64,000 nucleotides of DNA, from the sequence record PV577657. One strand, given 5' to 3'. Both the position numbers and the translations under genes were made by a program. Under the pieces are notes generated by a model, which was not told the origin of the DNA, searched no databases, and saw only the letters and a program-made list of their open reading frames with translations. This stretch comes from Escherichia phage vB_EcoS_MM-1. Below are positions 6,804 through 40,798 of the stretch, piece after piece; within the stretch, counting starts at the first letter, position 1, and each line of letters begins with the position of its first letter.

Positions 6804-7238
6804 TTAGAAAAATTCACTAGCAATCAAAGCAGTTGTTTTACCGTCATAACGTCCGGGAAATTCTGCCTTAATAGTTTTCATTAATAGAGCTTTGGTAATA
6901 CCTGGGTTTAATTTAACCAGTTCTGCAAAATACTCACGAATCTGAACCTCAGTCAGTTGACTTGGCTGATACTCTTGCAGCATGGAATAAAGCAGTTGCT
7001 CATAGTCTACATCAGTAGGAACTTCCATACCAACTTTAATAGCGCGTTGTTTTGCATTTTCTAGAGCCTTAATCTGAGCTTTCAGATAGGCTACGAACTC
7101 GGTTCGAGTAACAATGTCTTTATCAATACGTTGCAGATCACCAATCATGGTCTGAAGATTAAGTGCCCGTTCCTTATCACCGTGAGTACGTGCTAGACTA
7201 AGTAGTGCACGAAGGGTCATTAGAATATTTTCACCCAT
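6804..7238 (-). CDS. hypothetical protein
   Basis: 144-aa ORF, no recognised motif. Confidence 0.7.
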   Translation of the reverse strand: MGENILMTLRALLSLARTHGDKERALNLQTMIGDLQRIDKDIVTRTEFVAYLKAQIKALENAKQRAIKVGMEVPTDVDYEQLLYSMLQEYQPSQLTEVQIREYFAELVKLNPGITKALLMKTIKAEFPGRYDGKTTALIASEFF

Positions 7239-7408
7239 TATTTCATCCCCAATGCTTGGTTAAAAGATTGTTCTGTCATAACTGCTGAGACTTTGGCGAA
7301 ATCAAACTTTTTAGGGTTCGTAGTTATTTCAGCAACGTTAGAAGTTTTAACAGTTTTCGTAGTACGAATACCGCGAGTGTTAACACCAATAATTACAACT
7401 GATTTCAT
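7238..7408 (-). CDS. small hypothetical protein (56 aa)
   Basis: Hand-translated MKSVVIIGVNTRG...; GAGAGGAAG RBS; stop overlaps downstream start. Confidence 0.4.
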   Translation of the reverse strand: MKSVVIIGVNTRGIRTTKTVKTSNVAEITTNPKKFDFAKVSAVMTEQSFNQALGMK

Positions 7409-7419
7409 ATTTCGCTTCC

Positions 7420-7476
7420 TCTCATTAATTTATGAAAGTATTATACAGAAATTTAAGTAGCTAAGCAAGTAAATTT
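7420..7476 (-). promoter_or_regulatory. T5-type early promoter
   Basis: Shared motif TTGCTTAGCTACTTAAATTTCTGTATAATACTTTCATAAATTAATGAGAGG (minus strand). Confidence 0.55.
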
Positions 7477-7944
7477 TTAAGTTTTAGTGACAACAGGTTT
7501 ATAGAATGTATGTCCCTTAATCTTAGTTGTTTTCTTAAACTTCTTTGTCCAGTAAGGTTTATCTTTACCACTATGGAAGTATAGTGCTCCATATGTAGGA
7601 TCTTGTGGTAAATCAACGTAGTATATCACTCTAGCTAAATTCTTAGCGGTTTGCCAAGCCTCATCAGTTTTATCAACTTTTGGTCTCTTAGATACCCAAG
7701 AGAACTGGTTAGACTGATATACTACTTTACAGTAGGAATCTGGGAATTTACCGGAGTTTACACGGTTTTTAGTAACATGTGCAATCGCCGTCATTCCCTT
7801 TATGCCCTCACCACGACTTTCGAAATAGATATTTTTAGCAATGCAATCTATTTCTTTTGCATCGTGCGATGCCTGACTACTAAAGCTGAAGGTAAGGGCA
7901 GCTACTAAAAGCAAAGCTGCCTTCATTCTTTTTACTCCTGCCAA
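7477..7944 (-). CDS. secreted SleB/CwlJ-like cell-wall hydrolase
   Basis: Signal peptide MKAALLLVAALTFSFSSQA; SleB-like motifs (NIYFES, VTKNRV, QFSW). Confidence 0.7.
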   Translation of the reverse strand: MAGVKRMKAALLLVAALTFSFSSQASHDAKEIDCIAKNIYFESRGEGIKGMTAIAHVTKNRVNSGKFPDSYCKVVYQSNQFSWVSKRPKVDKTDEAWQTAKNLARVIYYVDLPQDPTYGALYFHSGKDKPYWTKKFKKTTKIKGHTFYKPVVTKT

Positions 7945-8249
7945 TCATATTCAACACGATTGGGATTTTCTTTATACCCTAAGTCAAGCAAATCATTACG
8001 CATATTTTGCTTAGCTACTGGGTTCGAGGTTACTAGTACCACTTTCTTTGGTCTCTGCCCAAATTCTAAGAGTAAACGAAGAATTTGATAACCTTCCATA
8101 CCATCTACAGCCAAGTCATTATCCATATAAACGAAATGGCCGGTGGTATCAGTTTTATTCAGAAACTCTACAGCGGCTTCTGGGGTTCGAATGATAATGT
8201 CCATTCCGTGAAGATTACGCACATCATCAATCAAAATATGAAAAGTCAT
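7932..8249 (-). CDS. receiver (REC/CheY-like) domain protein
   Basis: ILIDDV acidic pocket, central MDNDL Asp, VVLVTSNP; CheY-fold spacing. Confidence 0.55.
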   Translation of the reverse strand: MTFHILIDDVRNLHGMDIIIRTPEAAVEFLNKTDTTGHFVYMDNDLAVDGMEGYQILRLLLEFGQRPKKVVLVTSNPVAKQNMRNDLLDLGYKENPNRVEYDWQE

Positions 8250-8320
8250 AATAGCCTCGTTTCATCAATTTAAAAATATATTATACAGATAACTTAGTAA
8301 ATTAGCAAATACATTTTTAA
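8250..8320 (-). promoter_or_regulatory. T5-type early promoter
   Basis: Minus strand TTGCTAATTTACTAAGTTATCTGTATAATATATTTTTAAATTGATGAAACGAGG. Confidence 0.55.
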
Positions 8321-8691
8321 ATTGTGAAACTAGTAAACCGATAAACAGCCTAGAGGCGCCACAGGCCATATCTTATGAGCCATGTACCTTTGATCTAGGG
8401 TTTGAATCATCAACGAATACTTTGCATCTTTTAGCTTTAGAAGTTTAGAAGTTTGAGTTCTTTAAACTTTTCAGCTTTCATACTTAAATGTTGATCTTTG
8501 AAGTTGTGTCGGTAATATCAACGACGCTTTGTTCTTACGTGTCAGCTTAAAAGGCTGGTGTAATAAACATAATCTCCAATAGATTATACTTTATAGTATG
8601 GTCAGCGGTCTTATTTAACCTCGTATTTCAACCGCTGCTGCGAGGTAAGATGCTTGGGCTTTCGTCTACCGATTTACTAGCTTTTAAATTA

Positions 8692-9330
8692 TTACTCTAC
8701 TTCAATGAAGGTAGAGGCGTTAGACTCGGACAGAACAAAATCAACATTTGTTGCAAAGTCCTGGTATTCCTCGTCATGCTGCTTAATCAGCTTCTCCAGT
8801 TCCAGCGGATCAATCAAGAATGGAGTATTCTTGAGTTCCAGCAGGTTGAGCTGCATTTTAACTTCATCTTCGGAAGTTTTCTTATCGCGGGTAGCCATGC
8901 TATCCTGCAAACGCTCATATTTAGCATCAAACTGTGCTTTCTGCGTATTAAACTTAACCGTGGCGGCATGGAACTGCTTACGCATGTTAGCCAGCAGTTG
9001 GGCTTTAAGTTCCATAGAACGCTTAGCTTCAATTGCTTCCGCAACAGTCATTTTACGAGAGCCTATCTCAACGATCGTTTCTGCATTGCTCTTAATCAGA
9101 GCAGCTTTGATACGATCACGCTGGGACATCATATCCAGCAGGGACTGGAAATCTGTCTTAATACGCTCAGATAAATCATCTACTTCGATTGCAGCGCCAA
9201 CTACAACCTTATTTTTATCCTTACCTTCACCAACAGCGATCAGAAGCTGTTGTTCAGTAGCTTTACGGATTTTAGCTTCCAGAGATTTGATAGTTGCCAG
9301 AGCGCGAGTTTTAGAGATACGAGTAGTCAT
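8692..9330 (-). CDS. hypothetical coiled-coil protein
   Basis: 212-aa ORF with AAGGAAG RBS; antisense shadow ORFs overlap. Confidence 0.7.
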   Translation of the reverse strand: MTTRISKTRALATIKSLEAKIRKATEQQLLIAVGEGKDKNKVVVGAAIEVDDLSERIKTDFQSLLDMMSQRDRIKAALIKSNAETIVEIGSRKMTVAEAIEAKRSMELKAQLLANMRKQFHAATVKFNTQKAQFDAKYERLQDSMATRDKKTSEDEVKMQLNLLELKNTPFLIDPLELEKLIKQHDEEYQDFATNVDFVLSESNASTFIEVE

Positions 9331-9383
9331 TATTTGCTTCCTTATATGAAGTTTGAGATTTGAATTTGTTTAAAGTTGGTCTA

Positions 9384-9566
9384 TTACAGACCAATTGCCA
9401 GCAGAGTGCGCAGAACAGTATCGTTACTGTTATCAATTTTAGGATTAGCACGATTTAGCAGATCAAAGATTTTCTGGATACCTGATTGACGTTCAGCCAT
9501 ACGACGGATACCCAGATTACGAGTAGCTTTCTTACCATTTTTACGAACATTTTTAGATACTGGCAT
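9384..9566 (-). CDS. small basic protein
   Basis: 60 aa, K/R-rich N-terminus. Confidence 0.5.
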   Translation of the reverse strand: MPVSKNVRKNGKKATRNLGIRRMAERQSGIQKIFDLLNRANPKIDNSNDTVLRTLLAIGL

Positions 9567-9574
9567 ATTTGTTT

Positions 9575-9636
9575 TCCTTTTATTGTTTTCTCAAATTTAT
9601 GAATATATTATACAGAATTTTGGAGCCGGAAGCAAA
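9575..9636 (-). promoter_or_regulatory. T5-type early promoter
   Basis: Shared motif with TATAAT and CATAAATTTGAG (minus strand). Confidence 0.55.
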
Positions 9637-10338
9637 TCAAATTTTCATTTTTTCGATCATAGCTGCAACACAATAGCTCTCAACTAAGGCATCAAATGCT
9701 GGGTCGTGCTTAACCGGATAGATCCCATAACGAATGGTGTCCATCTTCTCCATTTTAGCTATTGCCCAGCTAATACCTTCGGTCTCTAGAGCTTTATAAC
9801 TGTATCCAGCTTGCATCCAGAGGTTACGAAGAGATCGAACATTACCCAAATTCCAGAATTTCCACGGAACTACCTCTTCATTGGTTCCAGCATGGAACGT
9901 GTTTGCAGAGTAGATAGTCATATCAAACTCTGGACCGTTTCCATAATACAAAGCATTTTCGCCTAAAGCCAACTCCATAATATTTTTAGCCATAGAGTAG
10001 GCAGCATAGTTAGAGCCGAGTTTATTAGTGCAATGATGTTTACCATTTTGGAAGGCAATCAGTTTTGGATTACGTTCCTTCATAGCTTCCATAATGTGGA
10101 TAGCAGACGGGCTATTTTTAGCTTGATCCATCCAGAATGCTAGAGTAGATGCTGTAACTTTGGCACCAGAATTAAGTTGATCTTGTACATCCAAAGTAAC
10201 AAATATTAGATCAGGGTCTTTATCAATTCCATGCATAGCCACAAAAGCGAAAGAAGGCATTGCGATATGAGTAGTACCACAATCTCCTGGAGTTCCCAGA
10301 GATTCAATATCTAGCATACCAAATGGTTTTACTTTCAT
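9637..10338 (-). CDS. DEDDh-family 3'-5' exonuclease (DexA-like)
   Basis: Exo I LDIESLG, Exo II NGPEFD, Exo III HDPAFD motifs. Confidence 0.65.
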   Translation of the reverse strand: MKVKPFGMLDIESLGTPGDCGTTHIAMPSFAFVAMHGIDKDPDLIFVTLDVQDQLNSGAKVTASTLAFWMDQAKNSPSAIHIMEAMKERNPKLIAFQNGKHHCTNKLGSNYAAYSMAKNIMELALGENALYYGNGPEFDMTIYSANTFHAGTNEEVVPWKFWNLGNVRSLRNLWMQAGYSYKALETEGISWAIAKMEKMDTIRYGIYPVKHDPAFDALVESYCVAAMIEKMKI

Positions 10339-11514: not shown

Positions 11515-11964
11515 TTAATTTATTAACTGTAAGCTTCTTTTAATTTCAGACCTTACTTGCATCAAAAGGACTCCTAAAGTATTATCCCCGATGCCTCGGC
11601 AAACACCCCAATATGTATCTCCCCAGGTATTTCCTTCGATCAAAGTTGCATTTTCTGTTGCTAACAGTTTATCTCTTAAATCAGGAATTGCAAACTTTAA
11701 TCGTAAAAGCTCTAGCATTACATCATCTTTTACTTTATCCCAGTCAGAGCGTAGGGTTAATTTACGTCCTATACGTTTAGCAACTCCTGCATTTAGGGAG
11801 CGAAGTACATGAGCTACATCATCTTTTTGGTCGGATTTCATAGCCTGAAAAGCATGTTCTACAGTATCAGCATGCCATATCTCATTTAGATATTCGAAAG
11901 TAATTGGTGATAAATAAAAGTTAGATAAGAAACTATAAGTACCTTTAAATTCAGTAATCTTCAT
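11515..11964 (-). CDS. NADAR (YbiA-like) domain protein
   Basis: Collinear YbiA/NADAR family motifs: FLSNFY, EHAFQAMK, DTYWG, LGVLLMQVR. Confidence 0.7.
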   Translation of the reverse strand: MKITEFKGTYSFLSNFYLSPITFEYLNEIWHADTVEHAFQAMKSDQKDDVAHVLRSLNAGVAKRIGRKLTLRSDWDKVKDDVMLELLRLKFAIPDLRDKLLATENATLIEGNTWGDTYWGVCRGIGDNTLGVLLMQVRSEIKRSLQLIN

Positions 11965-21686: not shown

Positions 21687-21722
21687 CTAATCAGCCGGGT
21701 TGCTAGTCGACCTGGCTTTTAT
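21687..21722 (+). terminator. putative terminator
   Basis: Imperfect hairpin AGCCGGGT...ACCTGGCT followed by TTTTATTTTATTT. Confidence 0.45.
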
Positions 21723-21727
21723 TTTAT

Positions 21728-21784
21728 TTGCTTTCAGCCAAAAATTTATATATAATAGATTTATAAATTTGAGAGGAGAAAGAT
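21728..21784 (+). promoter_or_regulatory. T5-type early promoter
   Basis: TTGCTT -17- TATAAT then AGATTTATAAATTTGAGAGGAG. Confidence 0.7.
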
Positions 21785-22165
21785 ATGGAATTAAAGCCCT
21801 ATATAGTTGAATCTACATGTGGTAGTTTCCATCTGGGTGTAGATGATATTGCTGAGGCTGTCTTTGCTGCCACAGGTGATTACTCGCATATAGAGGGTGT
21901 TGCATATCCTACTATTATTGGCGATTGGGTGGGAACAAATCTAGATGTATCACCTTATAATCCATATTGCTTGTTTGATGAAGACAGAGATGAAGTAAAA
22001 TGTAATCTTGAATTTGTGTATAATAGAGTGCTAAAAGTATACCAACGTAGCCCCCATGGGTACGAAGATATTACTTGGAGTATTAAACAATATCTTAAAG
22101 ATGTATACTCTAGTTTTTCTGATGAAGACCTAGAAACAGTTGCAGTGGAGTTTAATAATGACTAA
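21785..22165 (+). CDS. hypothetical acidic protein
   Basis: 126-aa ORF behind strong promoter/RBS. Confidence 0.7.
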   Translation: MELKPYIVESTCGSFHLGVDDIAEAVFAATGDYSHIEGVAYPTIIGDWVGTNLDVSPYNPYCLFDEDRDEVKCNLEFVYNRVLKVYQRSPHGYEDITWSIKQYLKDVYSSFSDEDLETVAVEFNND

Positions 22166-22364
22166 GAATGTGAAACACCTTAAATATCGCTTAATTTACA
22201 ACGGACGTATGGAAACGGAAGACCTGGCCAAATTAGCTATTAACTCTAATGAGGTTACAGTGCGTGCGCTGGCAATTGAAAAGTTGCGTGCCTCTTATGA
22301 AAATCGTGTTATGGAACTAGAGGAGAAACTTTATGGCATTCTCGAAGCCGATGCTACCAGATAA
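22158..22364 (+). CDS. hypothetical protein
   Basis: ORF-track 22140..22364; start ambiguous (MTKNVKHL). Confidence 0.5.
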   Translation: MTKNVKHLKYRLIYNGRMETEDLAKLAINSNEVTVRALAIEKLRASYENRVMELEEKLYGILEADATR

Positions 22365-22554
22365 GGGTTTAAACGCCGCTTTGGAAAACGCATTAATGCA
22401 GCACTGGGAAACTGGCTATAAGGATGGTGTTGAATCCTGCGCTACTATGCTAGAAGTTATTGCTAATACCTTAATGGAGAAAGGCAATAAAGAATTAGCT
22501 GAGCTATTAGACAGTATTGGGCAAAACTTCAGAGAACAGGTGAAAAATGCGTAG
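22333..22554 (+). CDS. hypothetical protein
   Basis: 73-aa ORF. Confidence 0.5.
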   Translation: MAFSKPMLPDKGLNAALENALMQHWETGYKDGVESCATMLEVIANTLMEKGNKELAELLDSIGQNFREQVKNA

Positions 22555-23383
22555 ATTAATTATTATTAGCGGTGCAGGTTTGAGTGTTGAAAGTGGTGTA
22601 CGAGCTTTTCGTACTGATACTGCTAGTGGTAAAGCATTGTGGGATGACTATGATCTAGAAGAAGTATGTAATATTCATGCCTTTCGTGGTAATTTTTATC
22701 ATAAAACCCACATGTTTTACAACAAGCGTCGTGAAGAGCTAAAAACTGTTGAACCCAATCTTGCGCATTTGCGTATTGGTGAATGGTATAAACAATATCC
22801 AGGTCAAGTAGTAAACTTGACTACCAACGTTGATGACCTTATTGAGCGTGCTGGCGTCCCACATAGTGACATTCTGCACATTCACGGATATTTAAAAGAG
22901 GTTGTTGTAGCTGATAGCTACAATAGTAGCAATAAACGGATTATTGATGTAGGATACAATTCTATTGATCCAGATGATTATAAATGGGTTAAACCTAATG
23001 TAATCTTCTTTGGAGAGCATGCTCCTGCATACGCAGAAATGTATAATGTTTTTGATGGTATTACCAGTCAAGATATGATCATTGTGGTTGGTTGCTCTAA
23101 CCAAGTAATTAACTTCTACTGGGAATTATTTCCTGTTCTTAATTTGACTGCTGCGAAACTTATGGTTGTTAACTACTATGATAGTGCCCTCGCAGCGGAA
23201 CCGGTCTATCAAGGTATGACTCGTAGTGAGATGTACCAGCTGGAGGAACGCGGTATCCCTTACTGGAGTAAAGGTGCGGTAGATGCTTTCAGTGACCCTG
23301 ATTTTATTGCTCGTGTAGAAGCTCATTTAGAGGGTAGACCTTATGTGTCGAGAAGCAAGAGAAACAGGTATGTCCATAGTTAA
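22547..23383 (+). CDS. Sir2-family (sirtuin-like) NAD-dependent protein
   Basis: GAGLSVESGVRAFR NAD-binding motif, NVDDLIERAG, HIHG catalytic His; no obvious Zn-Cys module. Confidence 0.75.
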   Translation: MRRLIIISGAGLSVESGVRAFRTDTASGKALWDDYDLEEVCNIHAFRGNFYHKTHMFYNKRREELKTVEPNLAHLRIGEWYKQYPGQVVNLTTNVDDLIERAGVPHSDILHIHGYLKEVVVADSYNSSNKRIIDVGYNSIDPDDYKWVKPNVIFFGEHAPAYAEMYNVFDGITSQDMIIVVGCSNQVINFYWELFPVLNLTAAKLMVVNYYDSALAAEPVYQGMTRSEMYQLEERGIPYWSKGAVDAFSDPDFIARVEAHLEGRPYVSRSKRNRYVHS

Positions 23384-23552
23384 ATCTGTATATACACATC
23401 CCGACGATATATTTGTATGGGCAGATGGTAGTTGGTGCTATCGCTGTGAGCTGTGGGAGATGGACTATAAATCCGATGACTATGGTGTTATATATGTTGA
23501 TACGGTTGAGTATGATACGTTCTTAGAAAGGAACAAAAATGGAAATAAGTAA
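23370..23552 (+). CDS. small hypothetical protein
   Basis: ORF-track 23343..23552; probable start MSIVKSVY. Confidence 0.45.
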   Translation: MSIVKSVYTHPDDIFVWADGSWCYRCELWEMDYKSDDYGVIYVDTVEYDTFLERNKNGNK

Positions 23553-24045
23553 TACTCCAATTATTTTTCTAGATATTGATGGGGTGCTCAATTCGAGCAT
23601 CTCCCACCATCATGCACCTGATGACGAAAAGATTTTCTTTGGAAGTGACTGGGTTTTCAAGCCGCTTCTCAAGGCTTTTCAGGACTTTATTCGTCCTTCT
23701 CCAATAATGATTGTTGGAGTATCATCTTGGTTCTCTGTCAGAAATGAGATGGAGAACGTTCAGATTATGACCGGATTAGGTCTTATCGATCGTTTTCTTG
23801 GTACAACGGATTTTACTGGGGGTGGGTTATCTAGGGGTAATTCTGTCCTTCGCTTCGTTGAAAAGCATAAGCTCAAACATTGGTGTGTTCTGGATGACGC
23901 TGGTGCTATGATGTATCAGTATCCAACGGTTATAGTCAACGGTAGAACTGGAATAAATCTTCAAGATTTAATGGCTGTTAGCTATATGTTAGAGTTTAGT
24001 CCAGATCTTGAAATGTGTAAATCCTTACAACAATTTAAGGTGTAA
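23539..24045 (+). CDS. HAD-superfamily hydrolase-like protein
   Basis: N-terminal FLDIDGVLN motif (HAD motif I); 168 aa. Confidence 0.65.
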   Translation: MEISNTPIIFLDIDGVLNSSISHHHAPDDEKIFFGSDWVFKPLLKAFQDFIRPSPIMIVGVSSWFSVRNEMENVQIMTGLGLIDRFLGTTDFTGGGLSRGNSVLRFVEKHKLKHWCVLDDAGAMMYQYPTVIVNGRTGINLQDLMAVSYMLEFSPDLEMCKSLQQFKV

Positions 24046-24047
24046 AT

Positions 24048-24476
24048 ATGTTCAATAATGTATTCTCTAAAGAAGCTAACCCAATTTTGGTTAACTTTTG
24101 GCGTACTCTCCCAGCTAGCCTGTATAATGAGGCTATTAACTCCTTGAAAATATGGTGTGAGAATAACGAAATCTCCTTTGCTTTTAAAGATGATATTGAT
24201 GAGGCCCCCTGTATTGGTTTAATTGTGCAGGTAGAGGATGGTCTTGAAGAGATTGTCGGCTGGAAAGAGTTAGATGAAATGGGCTTAATTTTTGCGTTAA
24301 ACTATAAGCTGTTTATGCCTGCTAAGCATCGCCTAGTTGTTAACTATAAAACTAGTGAATCTCCTGGTTTTCAGGTTAATGAACGTTATGGTTGGTCTTA
24401 CTCACCGGAAGAAGTAAATGAGGGGATTCAGAAACTTCGACGTTTCGGGTATATGATCCCAGGTTTAACTGCTTAA
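24048..24476 (+). CDS. hypothetical protein (paralog 1 of tandem pair)
   Basis: 142 aa; clear similarity to the disrupted downstream copy. Confidence 0.7.
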   Translation: MFNNVFSKEANPILVNFWRTLPASLYNEAINSLKIWCENNEISFAFKDDIDEAPCIGLIVQVEDGLEEIVGWKELDEMGLIFALNYKLFMPAKHRLVVNYKTSESPGFQVNERYGWSYSPEEVNEGIQKLRRFGYMIPGLTA

Positions 24477-24485
24477 GGAGGCAGA

Positions 24486-24877
24486 ATGGAACAAGTATAT
24501 TGGCGTCAGATTGACCCTAGTTTGGTGAAACGTGCGGAGAAGCTGCTACAACGTTGGTTGTGGGTAAGACAAGCCTCCTTCACTTTTCCGAGCAGCAAAC
24601 AGATGATCCCTGTATTGGTGTTTTCCTATCCGGCTACGCCGGGGAATGGGAATTGGATTGGAATGAATTGTCTGCTATGGGTTTAATTGTTGCCCTAAAT
24701 TTCTCTTTGTTCCATCCACGTGGGTTGGCCATACGTCGTGTGCCGGGTGATGGTTGTTCGCCCCATTTTTTACAGGTGGAAGATGATATTTGGGAGTACA
24801 CTCCAGATATTCTCGCAGAAGCTAAAGAACAATTAAATCGTGTTGGGATTTATGTTCCAGGCCTAAATGATGAATGA
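24486..24877 (+). pseudogene. frameshifted paralog 2 (or -1 frameshift gene)
   Basis: N-terminal homology to paralog 1 in frame of 24486, C-terminal homology in frame of 24554; frames join at CTTTTC run near 24584-24587. Confidence 0.55.
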
Positions 24878-25016
24878 TTTTTATTAGCTGAAATTTGTAA
24901 TCCGGGCTATTAGTGCTCGGATTATTACATAATCTTTTCAGTCGATTGACAGTCAAAATAAATTGTCGTTGACAATTTGGATGGATTATGTAATAATATA
25001 TGTATTGGAGGTGAGG

Positions 25017-25469
25017 ATGTCATTCACACAGCAAGAACTTTTAGATAACTTCCGATATGAAGATGGTAAGTTATTTAGAACTACAGGAAGAAATGCAGGG
25101 AAAGAATGTTGTGTTTCTACAGGTAACGGATATTATCGTATATCTCTAGGGAATAGGACTATGCTTCGGCATAGAGCAATATTTTTAATGCATCATGGAT
25201 ACTTACCTGATTTAGTAGATCATGTGAATACTATAAAAGGTGATGATCGTATTGAAAATCTTAGAGAGCAGACAGTATCCGGTAATCTAAGAAATATCAA
25301 ATATAAGAAAGGAATGCATGTTTACCCTTCTGGTAGTAAGAACTGGCAAGTGGTATTTACTATTAACCGTAAACGTATAGTTAAAGGAACATATGACAAC
25401 TATGAGGTTGCATGTTCTATGGCCAAGATGTTTAGAGGTCAATTATACGGTAGGGAATCAATCCAGTAA
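25017..25469 (+). CDS. HNH homing endonuclease (HNH + AP2-like DNA-binding)
   Basis: VDHVNTIKGDDRIENLR HNH motif; GGAGGTGAGG RBS before MSFTQQ. Confidence 0.8.
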   Translation: MSFTQQELLDNFRYEDGKLFRTTGRNAGKECCVSTGNGYYRISLGNRTMLRHRAIFLMHHGYLPDLVDHVNTIKGDDRIENLREQTVSGNLRNIKYKKGMHVYPSGSKNWQVVFTINRKRIVKGTYDNYEVACSMAKMFRGQLYGRESIQ

Positions 25470-25481
25470 AATTTCATTTGC

Positions 25482-25520
25482 AAGGGAGTATTATTTTATA
25501 GTATAATATTCCCATAAATG
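25482..25520 (+). promoter_or_regulatory. T5-type early promoter reading into untranslated leader
   Basis: TTGCAA -18- TATAAT then ATTCCCATAAATGAGAG; no start codon follows. Confidence 0.6.
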
Positions 25521-32095: not shown

Positions 32096-33067
32096 ATGAC
32101 CAATGTAAAAGACTTTATTAAACGCTGTCAAGAAGCATATTATCAAGGTATGTCTTTAATCTCTGACGAAGAATATGATCGTCTGATTAAAAGATTTCCG
32201 TTAGAAGAAGAGATCGGGCCTAAGGGCGATATTCCACATCTGTATCGTATGTATTCTTTACAGAAAGTTTATTATAATCGTGGAGATAAACCCCCGTTTA
32301 ACCCATTAGGTCAGGTAGAAACTGATAAGTTAGATGGTTGTGCAATTTCTCTGTTATATATTAATGGCGAATTTGTTCAAGCACTAACTCGTGGTAACGG
32401 TATTCTAGGGAATGATGTCACAAGCAACGTAAGATTGCTGAACATCCCTAAAAAGATTTCCCAAAAAGTACCTACTCAAATCACTGGTGAAGTTCTAATT
32501 ACAAAAGAAGTAGAAAATAAACGTAACTTTGCCTCTGGTGCTATTAACCTCAAAGATAGTGATGATTTTGTACAACGTATCGGAGAAGGTGGTTTAATCT
32601 TCGTTGCATATGGTATCCAGTGTTCTGCTGAATCTGTAGGTATTACAGAAGCATATTTAAAAGATATGCTTTGGCTGGAGAATGAGAACTTCTTAACAGT
32701 TGTTAATGTGCGTTCTTTCTTTAAATGGATTCCGACGGACGGTAAAGTTGTTCGTATTAATGATAACAACAAATTCTTCCGTGAAGGCTGGACTAATAAA
32801 TTCCCTCGTGGAGCATTCGCTATTAAAGAGGATGAAGAAGGCGAGATTACAACTCTTACTAAAGTTGAATGGCAGGTAGGAGCTTCTGGTAAAGTAACTC
32901 CAGTTGGTTATTTCGAACCGGTAATTATTGATGATGCTACAATTGTTAAAGCGACTCTTAATAACGTTGATTATATTAACTCTCTTGATCTAGAGATCGG
33001 TTGCCAGATTCGAGTGATTCGTGCTGGTGGTGTAATCCCGTGCATAGTAGAGCGAGTATATGATTAA
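32096..33067 (+). CDS. NAD-dependent DNA ligase, N-terminal fragment (adenylation + OB domains)
   Basis: KxDG adenylation motif (DKLDGCAISLLY); ends after OB-fold region; 323 aa. Confidence 0.85.
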   Translation: MTNVKDFIKRCQEAYYQGMSLISDEEYDRLIKRFPLEEEIGPKGDIPHLYRMYSLQKVYYNRGDKPPFNPLGQVETDKLDGCAISLLYINGEFVQALTRGNGILGNDVTSNVRLLNIPKKISQKVPTQITGEVLITKEVENKRNFASGAINLKDSDDFVQRIGEGGLIFVAYGIQCSAESVGITEAYLKDMLWLENENFLTVVNVRSFFKWIPTDGKVVRINDNNKFFREGWTNKFPRGAFAIKEDEEGEITTLTKVEWQVGASGKVTPVGYFEPVIIDDATIVKATLNNVDYINSLDLEIGCQIRVIRAGGVIPCIVERVYD

Positions 33068-33266: not shown

Positions 33267-34049
33267 TTGATGAAAATCGAAATTCCAACACAATGTCCCT
33301 CTTGTGGTTCTAAGCTAGATCTTGTCAACGGACAATTATTTTGTCGGAATAAGTCCAACTGTCCAGCGCAATCAAGTAAGTTAATTGAGAACTTCTGTAC
33401 AAAAATGAAGTTAAAGGGCTTTGGTCCAAAAACTATTGAAAAGCTGGAGCTGACGAAGATCTCAGAACTATTTTACCTAACCGAAGAAGATTTGGTTAGA
33501 GCCGTGGGTAGCAAGGTTGCCGCTAAGTTAATTAGCGAATTAAATACTAAAGTTCGCGGAGACATTGACTTTGGTTCAGTTCTCGGTTCTTTAGGAATCC
33601 CTCTAATTGGAGAGGTTGCAGCAAAGAAATTATCCCAAAATTGCACTAGCTTCCACGATGTGAAGGCTGACGGCAAGGCTGGAGAAAACTACAAAGCCTG
33701 GCTAAATTCCCCGCAAGGCAAGGATGTTATCGAACTACCGTGGAAATTCTCAACTGGTATTAAGGGCACTAAAGCTGACGTCATCATTACAGATGAATTA
33801 GTTGCCCAGCCAAATGGAATCGCGGTATGTATTACCGGATCTTTGCAAGATTTTGCAAATCGAACGGATGCAACAAACTATTTAGAAAGTCTAGGGTATA
33901 CGGTTAAGAAATCCGTTACCAAAGACGTAAAATACCTGATCTGTGAGGATGAATCAAAACGTTCTTCCTCATCTTATAAGAAAGCCGAAACGAATGGGAT
34001 AGAAATCCTGTCGATTAAAGAACTATTGGAGAAAAATAATAATGTCTAA
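33267..34049 (+). CDS. NAD-dependent DNA ligase, C-terminal fragment (Zn-finger, HhH, BRCT)
   Basis: Starts at LigA-type Zn finger CPSCGS...C..C; HhH-like GIPLIGEVAAKKL; 260 aa. Confidence 0.85.
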   Translation: MMKIEIPTQCPSCGSKLDLVNGQLFCRNKSNCPAQSSKLIENFCTKMKLKGFGPKTIEKLELTKISELFYLTEEDLVRAVGSKVAAKLISELNTKVRGDIDFGSVLGSLGIPLIGEVAAKKLSQNCTSFHDVKADGKAGENYKAWLNSPQGKDVIELPWKFSTGIKGTKADVIITDELVAQPNGIAVCITGSLQDFANRTDATNYLESLGYTVKKSVTKDVKYLICEDESKRSSSSYKKAETNGIEILSIKELLEKNNNV

Positions 34050-34891: not shown

Positions 34892-36364
34892 ATGACCTTG
34901 TTTAACGTGCAAGCTGTAGTGTTGAAGATGCTTCTAGCTTCTGAACAGAAGCAAATAGCATTGGAAACATTCTCAAAACTGCATAAAGATCATTTTAATG
35001 ACGCTTTCTCCTCAATTTACCAAGCCGTCCAGAATTATTATAAAAAATATAACACAATGCCGTCCATTGACGCACTGATGCTTGAGGCTAATAGGAACGC
35101 CCGCCTTTCTCAAGCTCTAGTCGTTTTAGCTAACACTCAAATTCCAGAAGTGAGCATGGAACAGGCACTTGAAGTCCTAGAGGCCGAATATACACAGGAT
35201 TTATTCCTAAAGCTTCTAGAAACAGACGTGCTTCAAGATTTAACAATGCTGGATCAGGGAGAAATTCTCAACCGAGTTGCCTCCCTTCACTTAAAATTAG
35301 AAGAGAAAGTAACGAATACTGGAAAAGTATTCAACGCAGATAACATGCGTATTTTCCAGAGAGAAGAAGATACCAAACTGAACCTAATCGCTCTTGGTAT
35401 TTGTAATGAGTTCGACGCTCAAATTGGTTTAGCTCGCACAGAAACGTTACTGCTTGGTGGTTGGCGTGGTACTGGTAAATCCATTATCTGTTCAAACATA
35501 CAGGTTCAGCAATATTTGAATGGAGATATTGCTCCATACTTCTCAATTGAGATGAAAGAACATGAAGTATTTAGACGTAATCTAGCCATGCTAGCTGGTG
35601 TATCAGCACTAGCAATGCGTAATAATACTCTAGAAGGTGCAGCTCTGTTGAGACTAGCCAGAACTAGAGCTAGGATGTTCAACGGTGGTGAAGAGCTTTT
35701 CGATAACTTCGTTAAACAGTATACAATGGCTAAGATGAGTGATTTCTACGATATGGAGAGTAAGCTAATAGAAGGGTATGAGCTACATACTCCTATGATT
35801 ATTGTTTATGACCCTGAGTTGTCTATTACAACAGTTGACGTAGAATTAAATAAATTAGTTGCTAGATATGGTGATAAAGTTACAGTAGCTCTACTTGACT
35901 ATATTAACCAAACCCGACTTCCAGACTCTAAAACCATTGATATGTATGACTGGAAAGAACAGATGGTTGTTAGCTCGTCTTTCAAATCTATCTGCCAGAA
36001 ACATAACGTGGCTGGCGTAGCTCCTTACCAGATCGATCAAGACGGTAGAACACGTATGTCAAAGGGGATTCTTGATTCCGCAGACATGGCTGCTAATCTT
36101 AATGCTGCAAAAGCTGATAATGGTCAAGGTGCTATTATGTTTGACTTCGTTAAGACTCGTTCTTCTGATAGCGTGAAGTTTATGCCTAAAATGAACTGGG
36201 AAACTCTGCGAATGGATAACACTACCAACCTAGCAATGGAAGATATATCTCAAATGGAAGCTGAGTTCGTTATCCCTATTGAGAAGGATAAGCCGGCTCA
36301 ACCTAAACGTGCTAAGAAAGACAAAGCTGAAAATTCAACAGGTGAACAGGCCAGCGATATATGA
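34892..36364 (+). CDS. replicative helicase (DnaB/RecA-fold ATPase-like)
   Basis: Walker A GGWRGTGKS; start at MTLFNV after AAAGGAG (ORF-track 34841 overlaps terminator). Confidence 0.65.
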   Translation: MTLFNVQAVVLKMLLASEQKQIALETFSKLHKDHFNDAFSSIYQAVQNYYKKYNTMPSIDALMLEANRNARLSQALVVLANTQIPEVSMEQALEVLEAEYTQDLFLKLLETDVLQDLTMLDQGEILNRVASLHLKLEEKVTNTGKVFNADNMRIFQREEDTKLNLIALGICNEFDAQIGLARTETLLLGGWRGTGKSIICSNIQVQQYLNGDIAPYFSIEMKEHEVFRRNLAMLAGVSALAMRNNTLEGAALLRLARTRARMFNGGEELFDNFVKQYTMAKMSDFYDMESKLIEGYELHTPMIIVYDPELSITTVDVELNKLVARYGDKVTVALLDYINQTRLPDSKTIDMYDWKEQMVVSSSFKSICQKHNVAGVAPYQIDQDGRTRMSKGILDSADMAANLNAAKADNGQGAIMFDFVKTRSSDSVKFMPKMNWETLRMDNTTNLAMEDISQMEAEFVIPIEKDKPAQPKRAKKDKAENSTGEQASDI

Positions 36365-36894
36365 TAACACAGGAAAGGCTAAAAGAGTTATTTGATTACT
36401 CCCCAGGAACTGGGGAGTTTACTAGAAAAGTATCTAGAGGTAATCAGAAAGCTGGTAGTATAGCTGGTTCTTTAAGAAAAGATGATTATATATGTATATG
36501 GGTAGATGGAAAGCCTTACTATGCGCATCAACTAGCTTTTCTCTATATGGAAGGTTATTTACCTGAAGAAGTAGACCATATAAACCGTATACGAAGTGAT
36601 AATCGTTGGGTTAACCTTAAAGATTCTTCTCACCAAGAGAATAGCAGGAATAAAGCAGCTAAAAGTAAATCAGGGTATATAGGAGTTAGTTGGAATAAAC
36701 AAAGGCAAAAATGGCAAGTTCAACTAAGAGATACCAATAAAAAGAAAATATTCGGTGGATATTTTGAGTACCAGAATTTAGAATCAGCAGTAGATAAGAT
36801 TAATAATCTACGATTACAATTTCATGGGGAAAATGCTATTCAAGAAATATTCGACCCGTCTAATTATCCTGCATTAGAGGAGATAAATTCATGA
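36361..36894 (+). CDS. HNH homing endonuclease
   Basis: VDHINRIRSDNRWVNL HNH motif; overlaps helicase stop and primase start. Confidence 0.8.
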   Translation: MITQERLKELFDYSPGTGEFTRKVSRGNQKAGSIAGSLRKDDYICIWVDGKPYYAHQLAFLYMEGYLPEEVDHINRIRSDNRWVNLKDSSHQENSRNKAAKSKSGYIGVSWNKQRQKWQVQLRDTNKKKIFGGYFEYQNLESAVDKINNLRLQFHGENAIQEIFDPSNYPALEEINS

Positions 36895-37781
36895 GTAGAA
36901 TAACAGAATTACTTGATCTTAAGGGAATTGAGTATAAAGATACTGGTGGAGATATTTTAATCTGTTGCTTAAATCCATATCATGATGATAAACACCCAAG
37001 TTTGCGTATTGATCCTGAAACCGGGATTATGCACTGCTTGAGTTGCGGTTTTGGCAAAGGTATACCTAGTATTTATCATTATTTTAATGAGACTCAATAT
37101 AGACAATCTCCAAGACTATCCCAAGTACGTAAAAAGATTTCAGAGATTAGAAATGGATCTACGAATCTTGCAATCCCAGAATCTGCCTGCCTTTTCGAAG
37201 GTGATTTCCGAGGTATAAGTTCTAAGACCTTGAAGAAATATTTTGCTTTCCAACACCAAGAGAACTGGGAAGGCAGAATTGTATTCCCAATCACAGATGC
37301 TGTTGGACGCAATATCCTATTTTTGGGTCGTTCTATAAACAGTTCTGCCCCTCCTAAATACTTAGTAAAACCAAAACAGGTTTCACCACCAATTTTCCCT
37401 GTACGATATAATACTCCAGTTCTTATTCTAGTTGAAGGTATCTTTGATATGCTGAACCTAGAGGATAGTGGTATAGACTATGCTTCTTGCTGCTTTGGTA
37501 CACATCAGTTTACTTCAGACAACATTGCAGATAAGTTCAGTCCGTACATTATTGCTGGTGTTAAAGTTGTTGTTATCTTACTAGATAATGATGCTTCTGG
37601 TAATAAAGCTGCACAAGCACTGGCCAAGCTAATTCGTACAAAAACGCGTTTAACACCTGTAGTTGCTAACTTTCTTCTGCCTGAAGGTAAAGACCCAGGT
37701 GACTTAAATAAAGAAGAAATTGATATGTTAGCAAAACGTATTGAAATTTTAGTTGCTGAATCGCTTAAAGATTTGGTATAA
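36891..37781 (+). CDS. DnaG-type DNA primase (CHC2 Zn finger + Toprim)
   Basis: C-x2-H...C-x2-C zinc finger; Toprim EGIFD and LLDNDASG. Confidence 0.85.
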   Translation: MSRITELLDLKGIEYKDTGGDILICCLNPYHDDKHPSLRIDPETGIMHCLSCGFGKGIPSIYHYFNETQYRQSPRLSQVRKKISEIRNGSTNLAIPESACLFEGDFRGISSKTLKKYFAFQHQENWEGRIVFPITDAVGRNILFLGRSINSSAPPKYLVKPKQVSPPIFPVRYNTPVLILVEGIFDMLNLEDSGIDYASCCFGTHQFTSDNIADKFSPYIIAGVKVVVILLDNDASGNKAAQALAKLIRTKTRLTPVVANFLLPEGKDPGDLNKEEIDMLAKRIEILVAESLKDLV

Positions 37782-37807
37782 TAGTCCTAAATAACTGAGG
37801 AGTTACT

Positions 37808-38137
37808 ATGGAATATGTATATATTTATGCGGATGTTCCAGTGTATGATAGTATAACACACAAAGAGGTTAAACTAGAGCGGTTTACAACACTGGAGTCC
37901 CTTAACAAACGAAAGAATTTCCATTTATTTGGTGATCCTAAATTACCTGCATCTTATATTTACTTTAAAGTAAAAGATACAGGTCAAGAGGTATACCTAA
38001 CATATGATTGGGCTGTTGTAGAAAATACTGAGCAATCTATGAAAGCGCTAGATGCTTTTCTGCGCATAGATGAAGAATTTCGGGTACTAGAAAAGCAGCG
38101 CAATGAAATGCGTAAATTACTTCACACATATAAATAG
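37808..38137 (+). CDS. hypothetical protein
   Basis: 109-aa ORF. Confidence 0.6.
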   Translation: MEYVYIYADVPVYDSITHKEVKLERFTTLESLNKRKNFHLFGDPKLPASYIYFKVKDTGQEVYLTYDWAVVENTEQSMKALDAFLRIDEEFRVLEKQRNEMRKLLHTYK

Positions 38138-38140
38138 TAT

Positions 38141-38200
38141 TTGCTATTATCCCAATATTTTGATATAATATATTGGTAAGTTAGAGAAGAAACACTGAAG
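38141..38200 (+). promoter_or_regulatory. T5-type promoter upstream of DNA polymerase
   Basis: TTGCTA -17- TATAAT. Confidence 0.6.
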
Positions 38201-38230
38201 TTATACTTACTTACCAAGAGGAGATTAAAT

Positions 38231-40798
38231 TTGAAAATCGCAGTAGTTGATAAAGCTCTAAATAACACTCGTTACGATAAACATTTCCAGCTATATGGCG
38301 AGGAAGTTGATGTATTTCATATGTGTAACGAGAAGTTATCTGGTCGTTTGCTTAAAAAGCACATTACTATTGGAACACCAGAAAACCCATTTGATCCGAA
38401 TGATTACGATTTTGTTATACTAGTAGGTGCTGAACCTTTCCTGTATTTCGCAGGTAAGAAAGGCATTGGTGACTATACTGGTAAACGTGTAGAGTATAAT
38501 GGATATGCTAACTGGATTGCGAGTATCAGCCCAGCCCAGTTACACTTTAAACCTGAAATGAAACCAGTTTTCGATGCAACAGTAGAAAATATCCACGATA
38601 TTATCAATGGTCGTGAGAAGGTTGCAAAAGCTGGTGATTACCGTCCTATTACTGACCCTGACGAGGCGGAAGAATATATCAAGATGGTGTATAATATGGT
38701 TATCGGACCTGTCGCATTCGACTCCGAAACCTCAGCACTATACTGTCGAGATGGTTATCTGCTTGGTGTTTCTATGTCTCACCAAGAGTATCAGGGTGTA
38801 TATATCGATTCTGATTGTCTCACCGAGGTTGCAGTATATTATCTCCAGAAAATTCTGGATAGTGAAAACCACACTATTGTTTTTCACAACCTGAAGTTTG
38901 ATATGCACTTTTATAAGTACCATCTGGGACTTACTTTTGATAAAGCGCATAAAGAACGCAGGCTCCATGATACTATGTTGCAGCATTATGTTCTAGATGA
39001 ACGTCGTGGTACTCATGGCTTGAAATCTCTAGCAATGAAGTATACCGATATGGGTGACTATGACTTCGAACTAGATAAGTTCAAAGAGGATTACTGCAAA
39101 GCACATAAAATCAAGAAAGAAGATTTCACCTATGATTTAATTCCGTTTGATATTATGTGGCCTTACGCTGCGAAAGATACCGATGCTACCATACGTTTGC
39201 ACAACTTCTTCTTACCAAAAATTGAGAAGAATGAAAAACTTTGTAGTCTGTATTATGATGTCCTAATGCCTGGTTGTGTATTTCTCCAGCGTGTTGAGGA
39301 TCGTGGTGTACCTATTTCTATTGATCGTTTAAAAGAAGCTCAGTACCAGTTAACCCATAATCTGAATAAAGCTCGTGAAAAACTGTATACTTATCCAGAA
39401 GTCGTTCAGCTAGAGAAAGATCAGAACGAAGCGTTTAACCCAAACTCTGTTAAACAACTCCGTGTTCTTCTGTTTGATTATGTTGGCTTAACTCCAACAG
39501 GTAAATTGACGGATACTGGAGCAGATTCTACAGATGCAGAAGCTCTGAACGAATTGTCTACGCAGCATCCAATTGCTAAGACTCTACTAGAGATTCGTAA
39601 GCTAACTAAGCTGATCTCTACTTATGTTGAGAAGATTCTTCTGAGTATTGATGCAGATGGTTGCATTCGTACTGGTTTCCACGAACATATGACTACTTCT
39701 GGTCGTCTGAGTTCTTCCGGTAAACTGAACTTGCAACAGTTACCTCGTGATGAATCTATTATCAAGGGTTGTGTAGTAGCTCCTCCTGGGTATCGTGTAA
39801 TCGCATGGGACTTAACAACTGCGGAAGTTTATTATGCTGCTGTTCTATCTGGTGATAGAAATATGCAACAAGTATTTATCAACATGAGAAATGAACCAGA
39901 TAAATACCCCGACTTCCACTCTAACATCGCACACATGGTATTTAAGCTCCAATGCGAGCCTCGTGATGTTAAAAAGTTATTCCCAGCTCTGCGTCAAGCA
40001 GCTAAAGCAATCACCTTTGGTATTCTGTATGGTTCTGGCCCAGCTAAAGTAGCTCATTCTGTTAACGAAGCTCTTCTGGAACAGGCTGCTAAGACAGGCG
40101 AACCGTTTGTAGAGTGTACGGTTGCAGATGCTAAAGAGTATATAGAAACTTACTTCGGTCAGTTCCCGCAGCTTAAGCGTTGGATTGATAAGTGCCATGA
40201 TCAGATCAAGAATCATGGATTTATCTATAGTCACTTTGGTCGTAAACGTCGTCTGCATAATATCCACTCCGAAGACCGTGGTGTTCAAGGTGAAGAAATC
40301 CGTTCTGGATTTAACGCAATCATTCAGTCTGCTTCTTCTGATAGTCTCCTTTTAGGTGCTGTAGATGCAGATAATGAGATCATTTCTCTTGGCCTAGAAC
40401 AAGAGATGAAGATTGTTATGCTGGTTCACGACTCCGTAGTTGCTATTGTTCGTGAGGATTTGATCGACCAATACAATGAAATCCTAATTCGTAATATTCA
40501 GAAAGACCGCGGTATTAGTATTCCTGGCTGTCCGATTGGTATTGATTCAGATTCTGAAGCTGGAGGTTCTCGCGACTACTCTTGTGGTAAGATGAAGAAA
40601 CAGCACCCATCAATCGCTTGTATTGATGATGATGAATATACTCGTTATGTCAAGGGTGTATTACTTGATGCAGAATTCGAGTATAAGAAACTAGCTGCAA
40701 TGGATAAAGAGCATCCAGATCATAGCAAATACAAGGATGATAAGTTTATTGCTGTATGTAAAGATTTGGATAACGTGAGAAGGATTCTCGGTGCTTGA
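38231..40798 (+). CDS. family A DNA polymerase with 3'-5' exonuclease domain
   Basis: TTG start after AAGAGGAGA; exo and Pol A motifs; 855 aa, matching my recollection of T5 DNA polymerase. Confidence 0.9.
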   Translation: MKIAVVDKALNNTRYDKHFQLYGEEVDVFHMCNEKLSGRLLKKHITIGTPENPFDPNDYDFVILVGAEPFLYFAGKKGIGDYTGKRVEYNGYANWIASISPAQLHFKPEMKPVFDATVENIHDIINGREKVAKAGDYRPITDPDEAEEYIKMVYNMVIGPVAFDSETSALYCRDGYLLGVSMSHQEYQGVYIDSDCLTEVAVYYLQKILDSENHTIVFHNLKFDMHFYKYHLGLTFDKAHKERRLHDTMLQHYVLDERRGTHGLKSLAMKYTDMGDYDFELDKFKEDYCKAHKIKKEDFTYDLIPFDIMWPYAAKDTDATIRLHNFFLPKIEKNEKLCSLYYDVLMPGCVFLQRVEDRGVPISIDRLKEAQYQLTHNLNKAREKLYTYPEVVQLEKDQNEAFNPNSVKQLRVLLFDYVGLTPTGKLTDTGADSTDAEALNELSTQHPIAKTLLEIRKLTKLISTYVEKILLSIDADGCIRTGFHEHMTTSGRLSSSGKLNLQQLPRDESIIKGCVVAPPGYRVIAWDLTTAEVYYAAVLSGDRNMQQVFINMRNEPDKYPDFHSNIAHMVFKLQCEPRDVKKLFPALRQAAKAITFGILYGSGPAKVAHSVNEALLEQAAKTGEPFVECTVADAKEYIETYFGQFPQLKRWIDKCHDQIKNHGFIYSHFGRKRRLHNIHSEDRGVQGEEIRSGFNAIIQSASSDSLLLGAVDADNEIISLGLEQEMKIVMLVHDSVVAIVREDLIDQYNEILIRNIQKDRGISIPGCPIGIDSDSEAGGSRDYSCGKMKKQHPSIACIDDDEYTRYVKGVLLDAEFEYKKLAAMDKEHPDHSKYKDDKFIAVCKDLDNVRRILGA

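Follow-up and report, generated by a model that had tools for sequence, protein, structure and literature searches.

KptA/Tpt1 removes the 2′-phosphate of RNA with the help of NAD+, yielding nicotinamide and ADP-ribose (ADPR, or ADPr) 1′′-2′′ cyclic phosphate, and T4 Pnkp heals RNA 3′-phosphate and 2′,3′-cyclic phosphate ends in tRNA repair. A distinct viral sirtuin clade, found in three types of gene neighbourhood, was described in 2022 by Iyer, Burroughs, Anantharaman and Aravind (Viruses 14:1977, PMC9503650, section 3.7.3), phage SP15 being typical of the neighbourhood in which the sirtuin is accompanied by a HAD protein. They proposed that the sirtuin acts like KptA on RNA 2′-phosphates, and that the phosphoesterases found with it deal with the ADPr>P by-product or open the cyclic phosphate; the literature searched contained no experiment that tests this prediction. 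The present study deals with such a Sir2–HAD gene pair in a stretch of 64,000 nucleotides (nt) from Escherichia phage vB_EcoS_MM-1 (record PV577657), called the window below, which is 100% identical to Escherichia phage vB_EcoS_MM-2 (PV577658.1; Tequintavirus, T5-like); window coordinates are those of the PV577658.1 record minus 31,892.

A further set of described systems concerns the rebuilding of NAD+. NARP1, which consists of Adps and Namat, was first recognised by its Pfam composition, Prs-like plus NAPRTase, and its intermediate ADPR-PP also decays to ADPR-cyclic-phosphate. According to a preprint from the Sorek laboratory (Osterman et al., January 2026, 10.64898/2026.01.28.702374), the RES-domain defence aRES converts NAD+ to ADPR-1′′-phosphate, which NARP1 cannot use, and ADPR is restored by Adpp, a Macro-domain phosphatase present in 15% of NARP1 operons and homologous to yeast Poa1p, which clears the Tpt1 by-product in tRNA splicing.

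The pair studied here is already known, both as annotated genes and through the published 2022 comparative-genomics prediction, and at the level of the locus there is no difference from the SP15-type neighbourhood: the gene pair, the phage group and the domain calls are the same, and phage SP15 is 94% identical to the window over positions 21700–25500. Our additions to the earlier account are a link between the HAD protein and NARP1-like operons, a remodelled substrate cleft in the sirtuin, and the patterns of presence and absence of the two genes in other phages.

Results

The first gene of the pair encodes a Sir2-family protein, in agreement with the original prediction, and both genes lie on the plus strand at the positions that it had given (Table 1). 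The Pfam SIR2 profile PF02146 is matched with 88.2 bits (E=8.1e-25; cut-off 24) over profile positions 1–178 of 180, and the motifs that had been quoted in support, GAGLSVESGVRAFR, NVDDLIERAG and HIHG, are present at residues 9–22, 94–103 and 111–114. The closest sequence of solved structure is that of E. coli CobB (1S5P, E=2e-17, improving to 1e-27 with a profile of the clade), other near relatives being Sir2-Af1/Af2 and SIRT5. The AlphaFold2 model, with a predicted local distance difference test score of 87.7, has the Rossmann plus small domain fold of sirtuins; its best Foldseek match is also CobB (target-normalised template-modelling score 0.86), and the top 50 matches are all sirtuins, with no defence-type Sir2 among them.

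There is a close agreement with CobB and SIRT5 in the parts of the active site that handle NAD+. Across 26 clade members of 55–86% identity, the GAGxS loop (G9-A10-G11-S13), F21/R22, the nicotinamide-pocket N94/D96, the catalytic H113 and the FGE loop are invariant, and the catalytic residues align with those of CobB. The class III anion-binding Y-x-x-R motif is also preserved, since Y58 and R61 (as well as R62) are invariant and align to the FYNARR of CobB. Unlike CobB and SIRT5, however, the phage protein has no zinc cysteines. The original prediction had remarked on the lack of an obvious Zn-Cys module, and this proves to be a property of the whole clade: none of the 26 members has a conserved cysteine between the HG of residues 113–114 and the KPNV of residues 149–152, where CobB has C...CxCC. 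Moreover, the TQN(I/V)D of deacylases is replaced throughout the clade by TTNVDD, and the V-x-P-A-A loop after G-x-S, which in sirtuins helps to clamp substrate peptides, by V-I-N-F-x-W (GCSNQ-V-I-N-F-x-W, invariant). The conserved NAD+ core, together with these three losses, suggests that the NAD+ chemistry is intact and the acceptor-binding cleft remodelled. As judged from the alignments and the model, the protein thus carries an intact NAD+-binding and catalytic core, on a CobB/SIRT5-like fold, with a remodelled substrate cleft.

Two familiar identities can be set aside. The NCBIfam CobB models score far under their cut-offs (NF001753, 100 bits versus 243; NF040867, 90 versus 320), so the protein is not a CobB equivalog. 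A defence-type Sir2 identity, as in ThsA, DSR1/2, SIR2-HerA and SPARSA, was also rejected, because no PADLOC family matched at E≤0.01 and the fold is CobB-like, which argues against a defence-type NADase. When 185,579 species genomes were scanned for the clade, there were two distant matches, both on contigs of metagenome-assembled genomes (MAGs), one of them clearly phage-like; a search for cellular homologues with informative neighbours yielded only these two. Among phages, on the other hand, 447 records match the region by megablast, 498 carry the HAD protein and at least 1,000 carry Sir2, the pair being present in more than 400 T5-like genomes. The sirtuin therefore belongs to an essentially phage-only, zinc-less clade related to class III (CobB/SIRT5).

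The second gene encodes a HAD-superfamily protein, again as predicted, with the FLDIDGVLN motif at residues 10–18 and a match of 73 bits (E=4e-20; cut-off 27.5) to profile positions 1–138 of 139 in Pfam HAD_SAK_2 (PF18143). This family is named 'HAD domain in Swiss Army Knife RNA repair proteins', and its defining architecture is taken here from the Pfam name and from PMC9503650. The protein has the Rossmannoid fold and is capless. In 17 diverse homologues, some as low as 38% identical, motifs I–IV (D12/D14, S62/S63, R99 and D119/D120) do not vary, and neither does the TGGGxxRG loop; the protein is accordingly predicted to be a catalytically intact capless phosphomonoesterase. It resembles the phosphatase domain of T4 Pnkp, MDP-1 and SCP1/FCP1 in having a DxDxT-type HAD core without a cap. 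A comparison of its sequence with solved structures gave no match. At E≤1e-3 the family counts 8,540 representatives, most of which are standalone and 150–190 residues long, and the window protein is likewise standalone, without the multidomain RNA-repair embedding from which the family takes its name.

We have surveyed the neighbourhoods of 59 independent viral loci, searching their open reading frames (ORFs) with profiles seeded from Pfam-annotated neighbours. The arrangement Sir2–(small ORF)–HAD–DUF7415 is found in 28 of them, all T5-like, and three T5-like loci (two of them Klebsiella-type) keep Sir2, the small ORF and DUF7415 with the HAD gene absent. At 12 loci an Rnl1 and/or an AAA_33 kinase gene lies directly upstream of Sir2 and an ATP-dependent DNA ligase gene downstream; the Sir2 orthologues here are 57–63% identical and come last or near-last in Rnl1–(cREC)–kinase–Sir2 operons, an arrangement confirmed by precomputed Pfam calls (Raoultella phage Ro1, a 139-kb contig). 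A Prs-like and NAPRTase pair is present within 10 kb of Sir2 at nine loci. The densest case is a 139-kb myovirus contig (L014, positions 1–9777), in which NARP1-like genes, NARP3-like NadR-like and PnuC genes, and a Metallophos–Rnl1–kinase–Sir2 series occur within 10 kb; by its domain content it can be described as an 'NAD+/RNA-repair island'.

NADAR genes are found about 6 kb from Sir2 in seven loci, and the Mydovirus-type loci with NADAR number six. In two loci with a T4-like backbone (L072, 8057–13125, and L140, 4664–11669), the order is NADAR–unknown–Nampt–Sir2–endonuclease VII–NrdD–NrdG, so that NADAR, Nampt and Sir2 are contiguous; Nampt (NAMPT_N plus NAPRTase) directly adjoins Sir2, which is 42–43% identical to the window protein. 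L140 is binned as a Bacilli MAG and resembles a phage contig. The survey therefore shows the sirtuin recurring beside genes for RNA end-healing and sealing and beside genes for NAD+ re-synthesis.

The HAD protein has a neighbourhood of its own, seen where its nearest relatives outside the T5-like phages are encoded. In three Vequintavirinae-type myoviruses, namely Serratia phage ChuuTotoro (L005), L006 and L138, the order is HAD–(99–116 residues)–Prs-like–NAPRTase, in which the HAD gene is the first catalytic gene and its product is about 39–43% identical to the T5 HAD; the whole subgroup nearest to the T5 HAD is 38–45% identical. The designation 'NARP1-like' for these operons refers to Pfam domain composition only. 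In ChuuTotoro the operon spans 35888–39104 of ON287369.1 (L005/L142) and a NADAR gene lies about 9 kb away; no Sir2 was found in this genome (tblastn with 26 clade queries, E≤1e-3), and no Rnl1, kinase or cREC with the survey seeds. In L138 a Metallophos–Rnl1–kinase–x–DNA ligase operon adjoins, without the Sir2 that is present there in Ro1-type phages. More distant HAD relatives (22–33% identity) are scattered, three of them 2–3.5 kb from Rnl1/kinase genes and two or three near NAPRTase or Prs; the loci with a HAD relative at 2–3.5 kb from Rnl1/kinase are L094, L101, L102 and L138.

The position of these HAD genes recalls NARP1-AP (Adps + Adpp + Namat; 10.64898/2026.01.28.702374), where a phosphatase gene is likewise part of an Adps/Namat-type operon. 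Adpp, however, is a Macro-domain protein and the window protein a HAD, so that the latter could only be an analogue, and no match to Adps or Namat (PRS or NAPRT families) was found in the window. Since the HAD gene heads Adps/Namat-like operons and Adpp provides a precedent, we regard it as a candidate non-homologous analogue of Adpp. A phosphatase for phospho-ADP-ribose would also be just what a KptA-like sirtuin needs downstream. HAD_SAK_2 at the head of NARP1-like operons was not found in the literature searched and is a new lead.

Within the T5-like phages, no locus was found with an intact HAD gene and no Sir2, and the linkage of the two outlasts both gene-order inversion and deep divergence. 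In Erwinia KEY-type T5-like phages (L007, L015 and L139) the order is HAD–(81 to 118 residues)–Sir2, the reverse of that in the window, with a HAD protein about 40% identical. In Epseptimavirus (L054–L057) the HAD protein is about 90% identical to that of the window at the amino-acid level and Sir2 only about 52%; with a dN (non-synonymous substitution rate) of 0.31, the dS (synonymous rate) of this Sir2 reaches 1.5, as compared with about 0.7–0.9 for HAD and NrdD. The divergence and the raised dS indicate that the Sir2 allele was replaced by recombination.

The pair has also been lost. In DT57C (L003, NC_027356.1 46493–46765) and in L089, a single deletion fuses Sir2 residues of about 169–215 to the C-terminal half of the HAD protein; in DT57C a 90-residue remnant is left, with most of Sir2, the small ORF and the N-terminal half of HAD gone. 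DT57C is viable without the pair, meaning that Sir2–HAD is dispensable under laboratory conditions. Being a natural double mutant, it should be useful experimentally, and T5 is a tractable model. Such fusions also bear on the annotation of these genes. In GenBank the first gene is called 'Sir2-like' and the second, in some records, 'RNA repair protein'; in MM-2 (PV577658.1 CDS0139) and in RefSeq the HAD gene is mislabelled 'Sir2 NAD-dependent deacetylase'. This second 'Sir2' is in fact the HAD, the label coming from phrog_18062, a 92-residue profile that matches Sir2 residues 169–215 and HAD residues 77–168. The DT57C remnant matches the same two segments, which suggests that chimeras of this kind are the probable source of the profile. 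In another record, that of phage PSa2, Sir2 is split into two coding sequences.

The two genes stand in a tightly packed series at 21785–24877, comprising three small ORFs, Sir2, an acidic ORF of 60–69 residues, HAD and two DUF7415 paralogues (Table 1). The start of Sir2 overlaps the stop of ORF 22333–22554, the small acidic ORF overlaps the stop of Sir2, the HAD start overlaps the stop of the small acidic ORF (ATGGAAATAAGTAA), and DUF7415 copy 1 begins 2 nt past the HAD stop. As judged by consensus matches only, the block is bordered by a terminator-like hairpin upstream and a strong sigma-70-like promoter downstream. For each gene, dN/dS was calculated against the window across the 28 T5-like loci; the medians are 0.105 for Sir2, 0.044 for HAD, 0.036 for the small ORF and 0.091 for DUF7415, with NrdD as a control at 0.018. 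These low ratios, together with the invariant catalytic motifs of HAD, indicate that Sir2 and HAD are functional and under purifying selection.

Table 1. Positions in the window of the genes and signals discussed in the text.
Feature	Position	Strand	Remarks
NADAR-domain protein, 149 residues, possibly YbiA-like	11515–11964	−	PF08719, 80.8 bits vs 35.1, E=1.8e-22
Terminator-like hairpin after nrdD	21693–21717	+	10-bp stem with 6 GC pairs, then T-run; consensus match only
Three small overlapping ORFs	21785–22165, 22158–22364, 22333–22554	+	PHROGs of unknown function; head the block of Sir2
Sir2-family protein, 278 residues	22547–23383	+	PF02146; phrog_2162, E=1e-121
Small acidic ORF	23343–23552	+	phrog_5116, E=1e-29 over residues 15–69
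HAD-superfamily phosphatase, 168 residues, capless	23539–24045	+	HAD_SAK_2
DUF7415 copy 1 (T5.106 homologue)	24048–24476	+	PF24187, E=3e-35
DUF7415 copy 2 (T5.107 homologue)	24486–24877	+	PF24187, E=4e-16 on the 24554–24877 frame
Sigma-70-like promoter before HNH endonuclease gene	24969–24997	+	TTGACA-17-AATAAT, 11/12, upstream TG; consensus match only
NAD+-dependent DNA ligase, split in two	32096–33067, 33270–34049	+	PF01653 and PF03120 on the first, BRCT on the second

The small acidic ORF has the lowest dN/dS in the block. It encodes 69 residues from 23343, or 60 from the ATG at 23370, which is the likelier start, and homologues of it come after Sir2 in most T5-like loci, as well as in L067/L068, which lack HAD, and in the non-T5 L047/L048; it may be a partner or regulator of Sir2. 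DUF7415 copy 1 is kept downstream of the pair in all T5-like loci, the HAD-less ones included. DUF7415 copy 2, which is intact in relatives (129–131 residues), is split here into two ORFs by a 1-nt deletion near 24590, where T5 and others read TTTTCCGGAGC and the window, in the alignment, TTTTCC-GAGC; either the gene is a pseudogene in MM-2, or the sequence is in error at this point. As for the ORFs upstream, a 65-residue homologue of ORF 22333–22554 in phage PSa2 (L004, OL770310.1 58683–58877) is labelled 'nicotinamide mononucleotide transporter'. We consider this label spurious, as the product is only 65 residues long and soluble, and its window homologue has no evident hydrophobic segment.

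The original prediction had joined Sir2, HAD and a NADAR gene at about 11.5 kb into a possible NAD/ADP-ribose toolkit. The NADAR gene is indeed present (Table 1), scoring 69.6 bits with the YbiA-type model TIGR02464, just under the cut-off of 73.7, and PMC9503650 lists all three families in its phage NAD+/ADP-ribose network. What finds no support is the tie of NADAR to the pair in this phage: it lies 11 kb away, on the opposite strand and in a different gene block, next to RNase H, exonuclease and DUF7022 genes, so that nothing connects it to Sir2/HAD here, and it is not demonstrably part of their module. A fourth NAD+-using function, which had not been listed, is the DNA ligase, encoded in two halves about 200 nt apart, the first with the adenylation and OB domains and the second with the HhH/BRCT domains. 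Since this ligase is NAD+-dependent, the phage itself needs NAD+. A counter-defence role for Sir2/HAD, as had also been suggested, is plausible.

A NARP3 system (NadR-like plus PnuC) was sought in the window and rejected, as the plus-strand candidates at 3.1–4.8 kb are Q-rich and give no NADR or PNUC match; the plus-strand region 3106–4797 encodes a 349-residue protein (D/E-rich, with Gly- and Gln-rich segments), a very Gln-rich one of 138 residues and a Cys-rich one of 64. According to the record annotation, positions 1–6600 hold a dense minus-strand tRNA cluster amid small ORFs, which bears on scenarios of tRNA damage and repair.

Discussion

We tentatively favour the view that the pair belongs to an NAD+-consuming phosphate-removal module, in which the HAD protein clears an RNA end or a phospho-ADP-ribose by-product. 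Sir2, the small ORF, HAD and DUF7415 would form a co-transcribed and dispensable early-gene block of T5-like phages, within a phage network of NAD+/ADP-ribose and RNA repair. The sirtuin would use NAD+ to ADP-ribosylate a phosphate instead of an acyl-lysine, the likeliest target being a 2′-phosphate on RNA cut by host ribonucleases, and would release nicotinamide and ADP-ribose 1′′-2′′ cyclic phosphate, as KptA/Tpt1 does. HAD would then strip the remaining phosphomonoester, either at the RNA 3′ end or from the by-product, converting ADPR-1′′-P to ADPR, and the resulting products could be rebuilt into NAD+ by the cell or by a NARP1-type pathway. The expected gain for the phage is protection from host defences that cleave RNA and/or target NAD+. 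Of these elements, the acceptor, the compound on which HAD acts and the benefit to the phage are inferred.

Several lines of evidence lead us to this preference. They include the published prediction, the neighbourhoods with Rnl1/kinase and with NAD+ genes, and the Sir2–HAD linkage; the HAD–NARP1-like operons, the position of Adpp, and the decay of the NARP1 intermediate to ADPR-cyclic-phosphate; the invariance of Y-x-x-R while the clamp loop and the Zn module have been lost; and the gene overlaps and the purifying selection. The resemblance to KptA/Tpt1, with its Cpd1 and Poa1p by-product pathway, lies in the proposed chemistry (removal of a 2′-phosphate via ADP-ribosylation, followed by a phosphatase leading to ADPR) and in the genomic company of RNA ligase, kinase and phosphoesterases. 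KptA/Tpt1, however, has the ADP-ribosyltransferase fold (Pfam PTS_2-RNA) and the phage sirtuin a Rossmann fold; the folds are unrelated, and the sirtuin could therefore only be a functional analogue.

A number of observations weigh against a phosphate-removal module. The strongest objection is that genes for RNA ligase, polynucleotide kinase and cyclic phosphodiesterase went undetected in the 64-kb window, where Rnl1, kinase and cREC gave no match, and that the annotation of the first 96 kb of the genome lists none, so that an RNA-repair pathway would be incomplete and would need host enzymes. Protein deacylases are the closest characterised relatives of the sirtuin, which still has the catalytic His and the FGE loop that deacylation needs; the literature search turned up no published assay or experiment on any member of the clade. 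For HAD, the fold search points to no substrate, and domain fusions, which we also tried as a guide, were uninformative, consisting only of tandem HADs and one Metallophos–HAD. The occurrence of HAD without Sir2 in ChuuTotoro, and of Sir2 without HAD in three T5-like lineages, means that the two are not obligate partners, and a hot spot for accessory genes, situated between nrdD and the genes of replication, could account for their adjacency within a single phage family.

The same features of the sirtuin may be read differently. Early in infection it could reprogramme host or phage proteins, either as a CobB-like protein deacylase dependent on NAD+ (a deacetylase or desuccinylase) or as a protein ADP-ribosyltransferase, with HAD an unrelated neighbour. 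Its best sequence and fold matches are CobB, Sir2-Af1/Af2 and SIRT5, it retains every catalytic residue that deacylation requires as well as the acyl-carboxylate motif Y-x-x-R of class III, and deacylase models are the only NCBIfam matches. Nicotinamide inhibits sirtuins, and an adjoining Nampt or NARP1, by removing it, would aid any NAD+-consuming sirtuin. The scores, however, are far under the CobB equivalog cut-offs, and the structural Zn site, which deacylase sirtuins generally require, is absent throughout the clade. The V-x-P-A-A loop and the Gln of TQN(I/V)D have been exchanged for clade-invariant residues, and the conserved partners are phosphoesterases, kinases and ligases rather than the esterases or Macro domains expected for O-acyl-ADPR. 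We find a deacylase, the main rival reading, possible but doubtful. Still another sirtuin activity, that of an NADase for host shut-off or superinfection exclusion, comparable to defence-type Sir2 effectors, is hardly credible. The Sir2 domains of ThsA, DSR and HerA systems are NADases, and the phage gene is early and dispensable; yet there is no PADLOC match, the fold is of the deacylase type, the phage ligase depends on NAD+, and related phages put Sir2 beside genes that rebuild it.

The neighbours of HAD, for their part, leave room for an explanation in which only small molecules are involved and RNA has no part: HAD would be an Adpp analogue making ADPR from phospho-ADPR, the sirtuin would act on a soluble NAD+/ADPR derivative, and the two would counter NAD+-directed immunity. 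Phospho-ADPR could come from RES-type defences (ADPR-1′′-P), from cleavage of NADP (ADPR-2′-P) or from hydrolysed ADPR-cyclic-P. This would suit the HAD genes that head Adps-like/Namat-like operons in three independent contigs, one of them a phage without Sir2, Rnl1 and kinase, and the precedent of Adpp; it would also suit Sir2 beside Nampt and NADAR in L072/L140 and near NARP1-like and NARP3-like genes in L014, and the need of the phage ligase for NAD+. We nevertheless consider it unlikely, since the pair-bearing T5-like phages have no NARP1 genes in the window, which would leave ADPR without a phage-encoded sink, and since the only soluble reaction that fits the sirtuin is an NADase activity, harmful to an NAD+-dependent phage. 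In addition, HAD_SAK_2 was defined in Pfam from RNA-repair proteins, and capless HADs typically act on macromolecules. The original prediction of one distributed pathway, in which Sir2, HAD and the distant NADAR together serve counter-defence or host modification, appears improbable. The three families do occur together in the viral NAD+/ADPr network (PMC9503650), NADAR lies near the Sir2 clade elsewhere (six Mydovirus-type loci, L070 and L140), and the ChuuTotoro HAD–NARP1-like operon is about 9 kb from a NADAR gene. In the present phage, however, NADAR is 11 kb off on the other strand amid RNase H and exonuclease genes, and none of the T5-like loci examined has the three in a shared operon. 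Furthermore, YbiA-type and T4 NADARs remove guanine-ADPr from DNA in vitro (PMC11125620), a reaction unrelated to any product of Sir2 or HAD.

A bolder form of the phosphate-removal module would join two proposals. The phage sirtuin would be the first with a nucleic-acid phosphate acceptor, an analogue of Tpt1/KptA, and at the same time HAD_SAK_2 would be an analogue of Adpp/Poa1p acting on ADPR-1′′-phosphate; in some phages it would equip NARP1 operons to withstand RES-type NAD+ phosphorylase defences, and in the T5-like ones it would clear the by-product of the sirtuin. That both parts hold is unlikely. If the sirtuin works as predicted, it would represent a new class of sirtuin reaction and give NAD+-dependent RNA repair a second route, reached by convergence, in a clade known from at least 1,000 sequenced phages, the model phage T5 among them; and the link between HAD and NARP1-like operons bears directly on the current work on NAD+ depletion and reconstitution in conflicts between phages and bacteria (NARP1, NARP1-AP and aRES).

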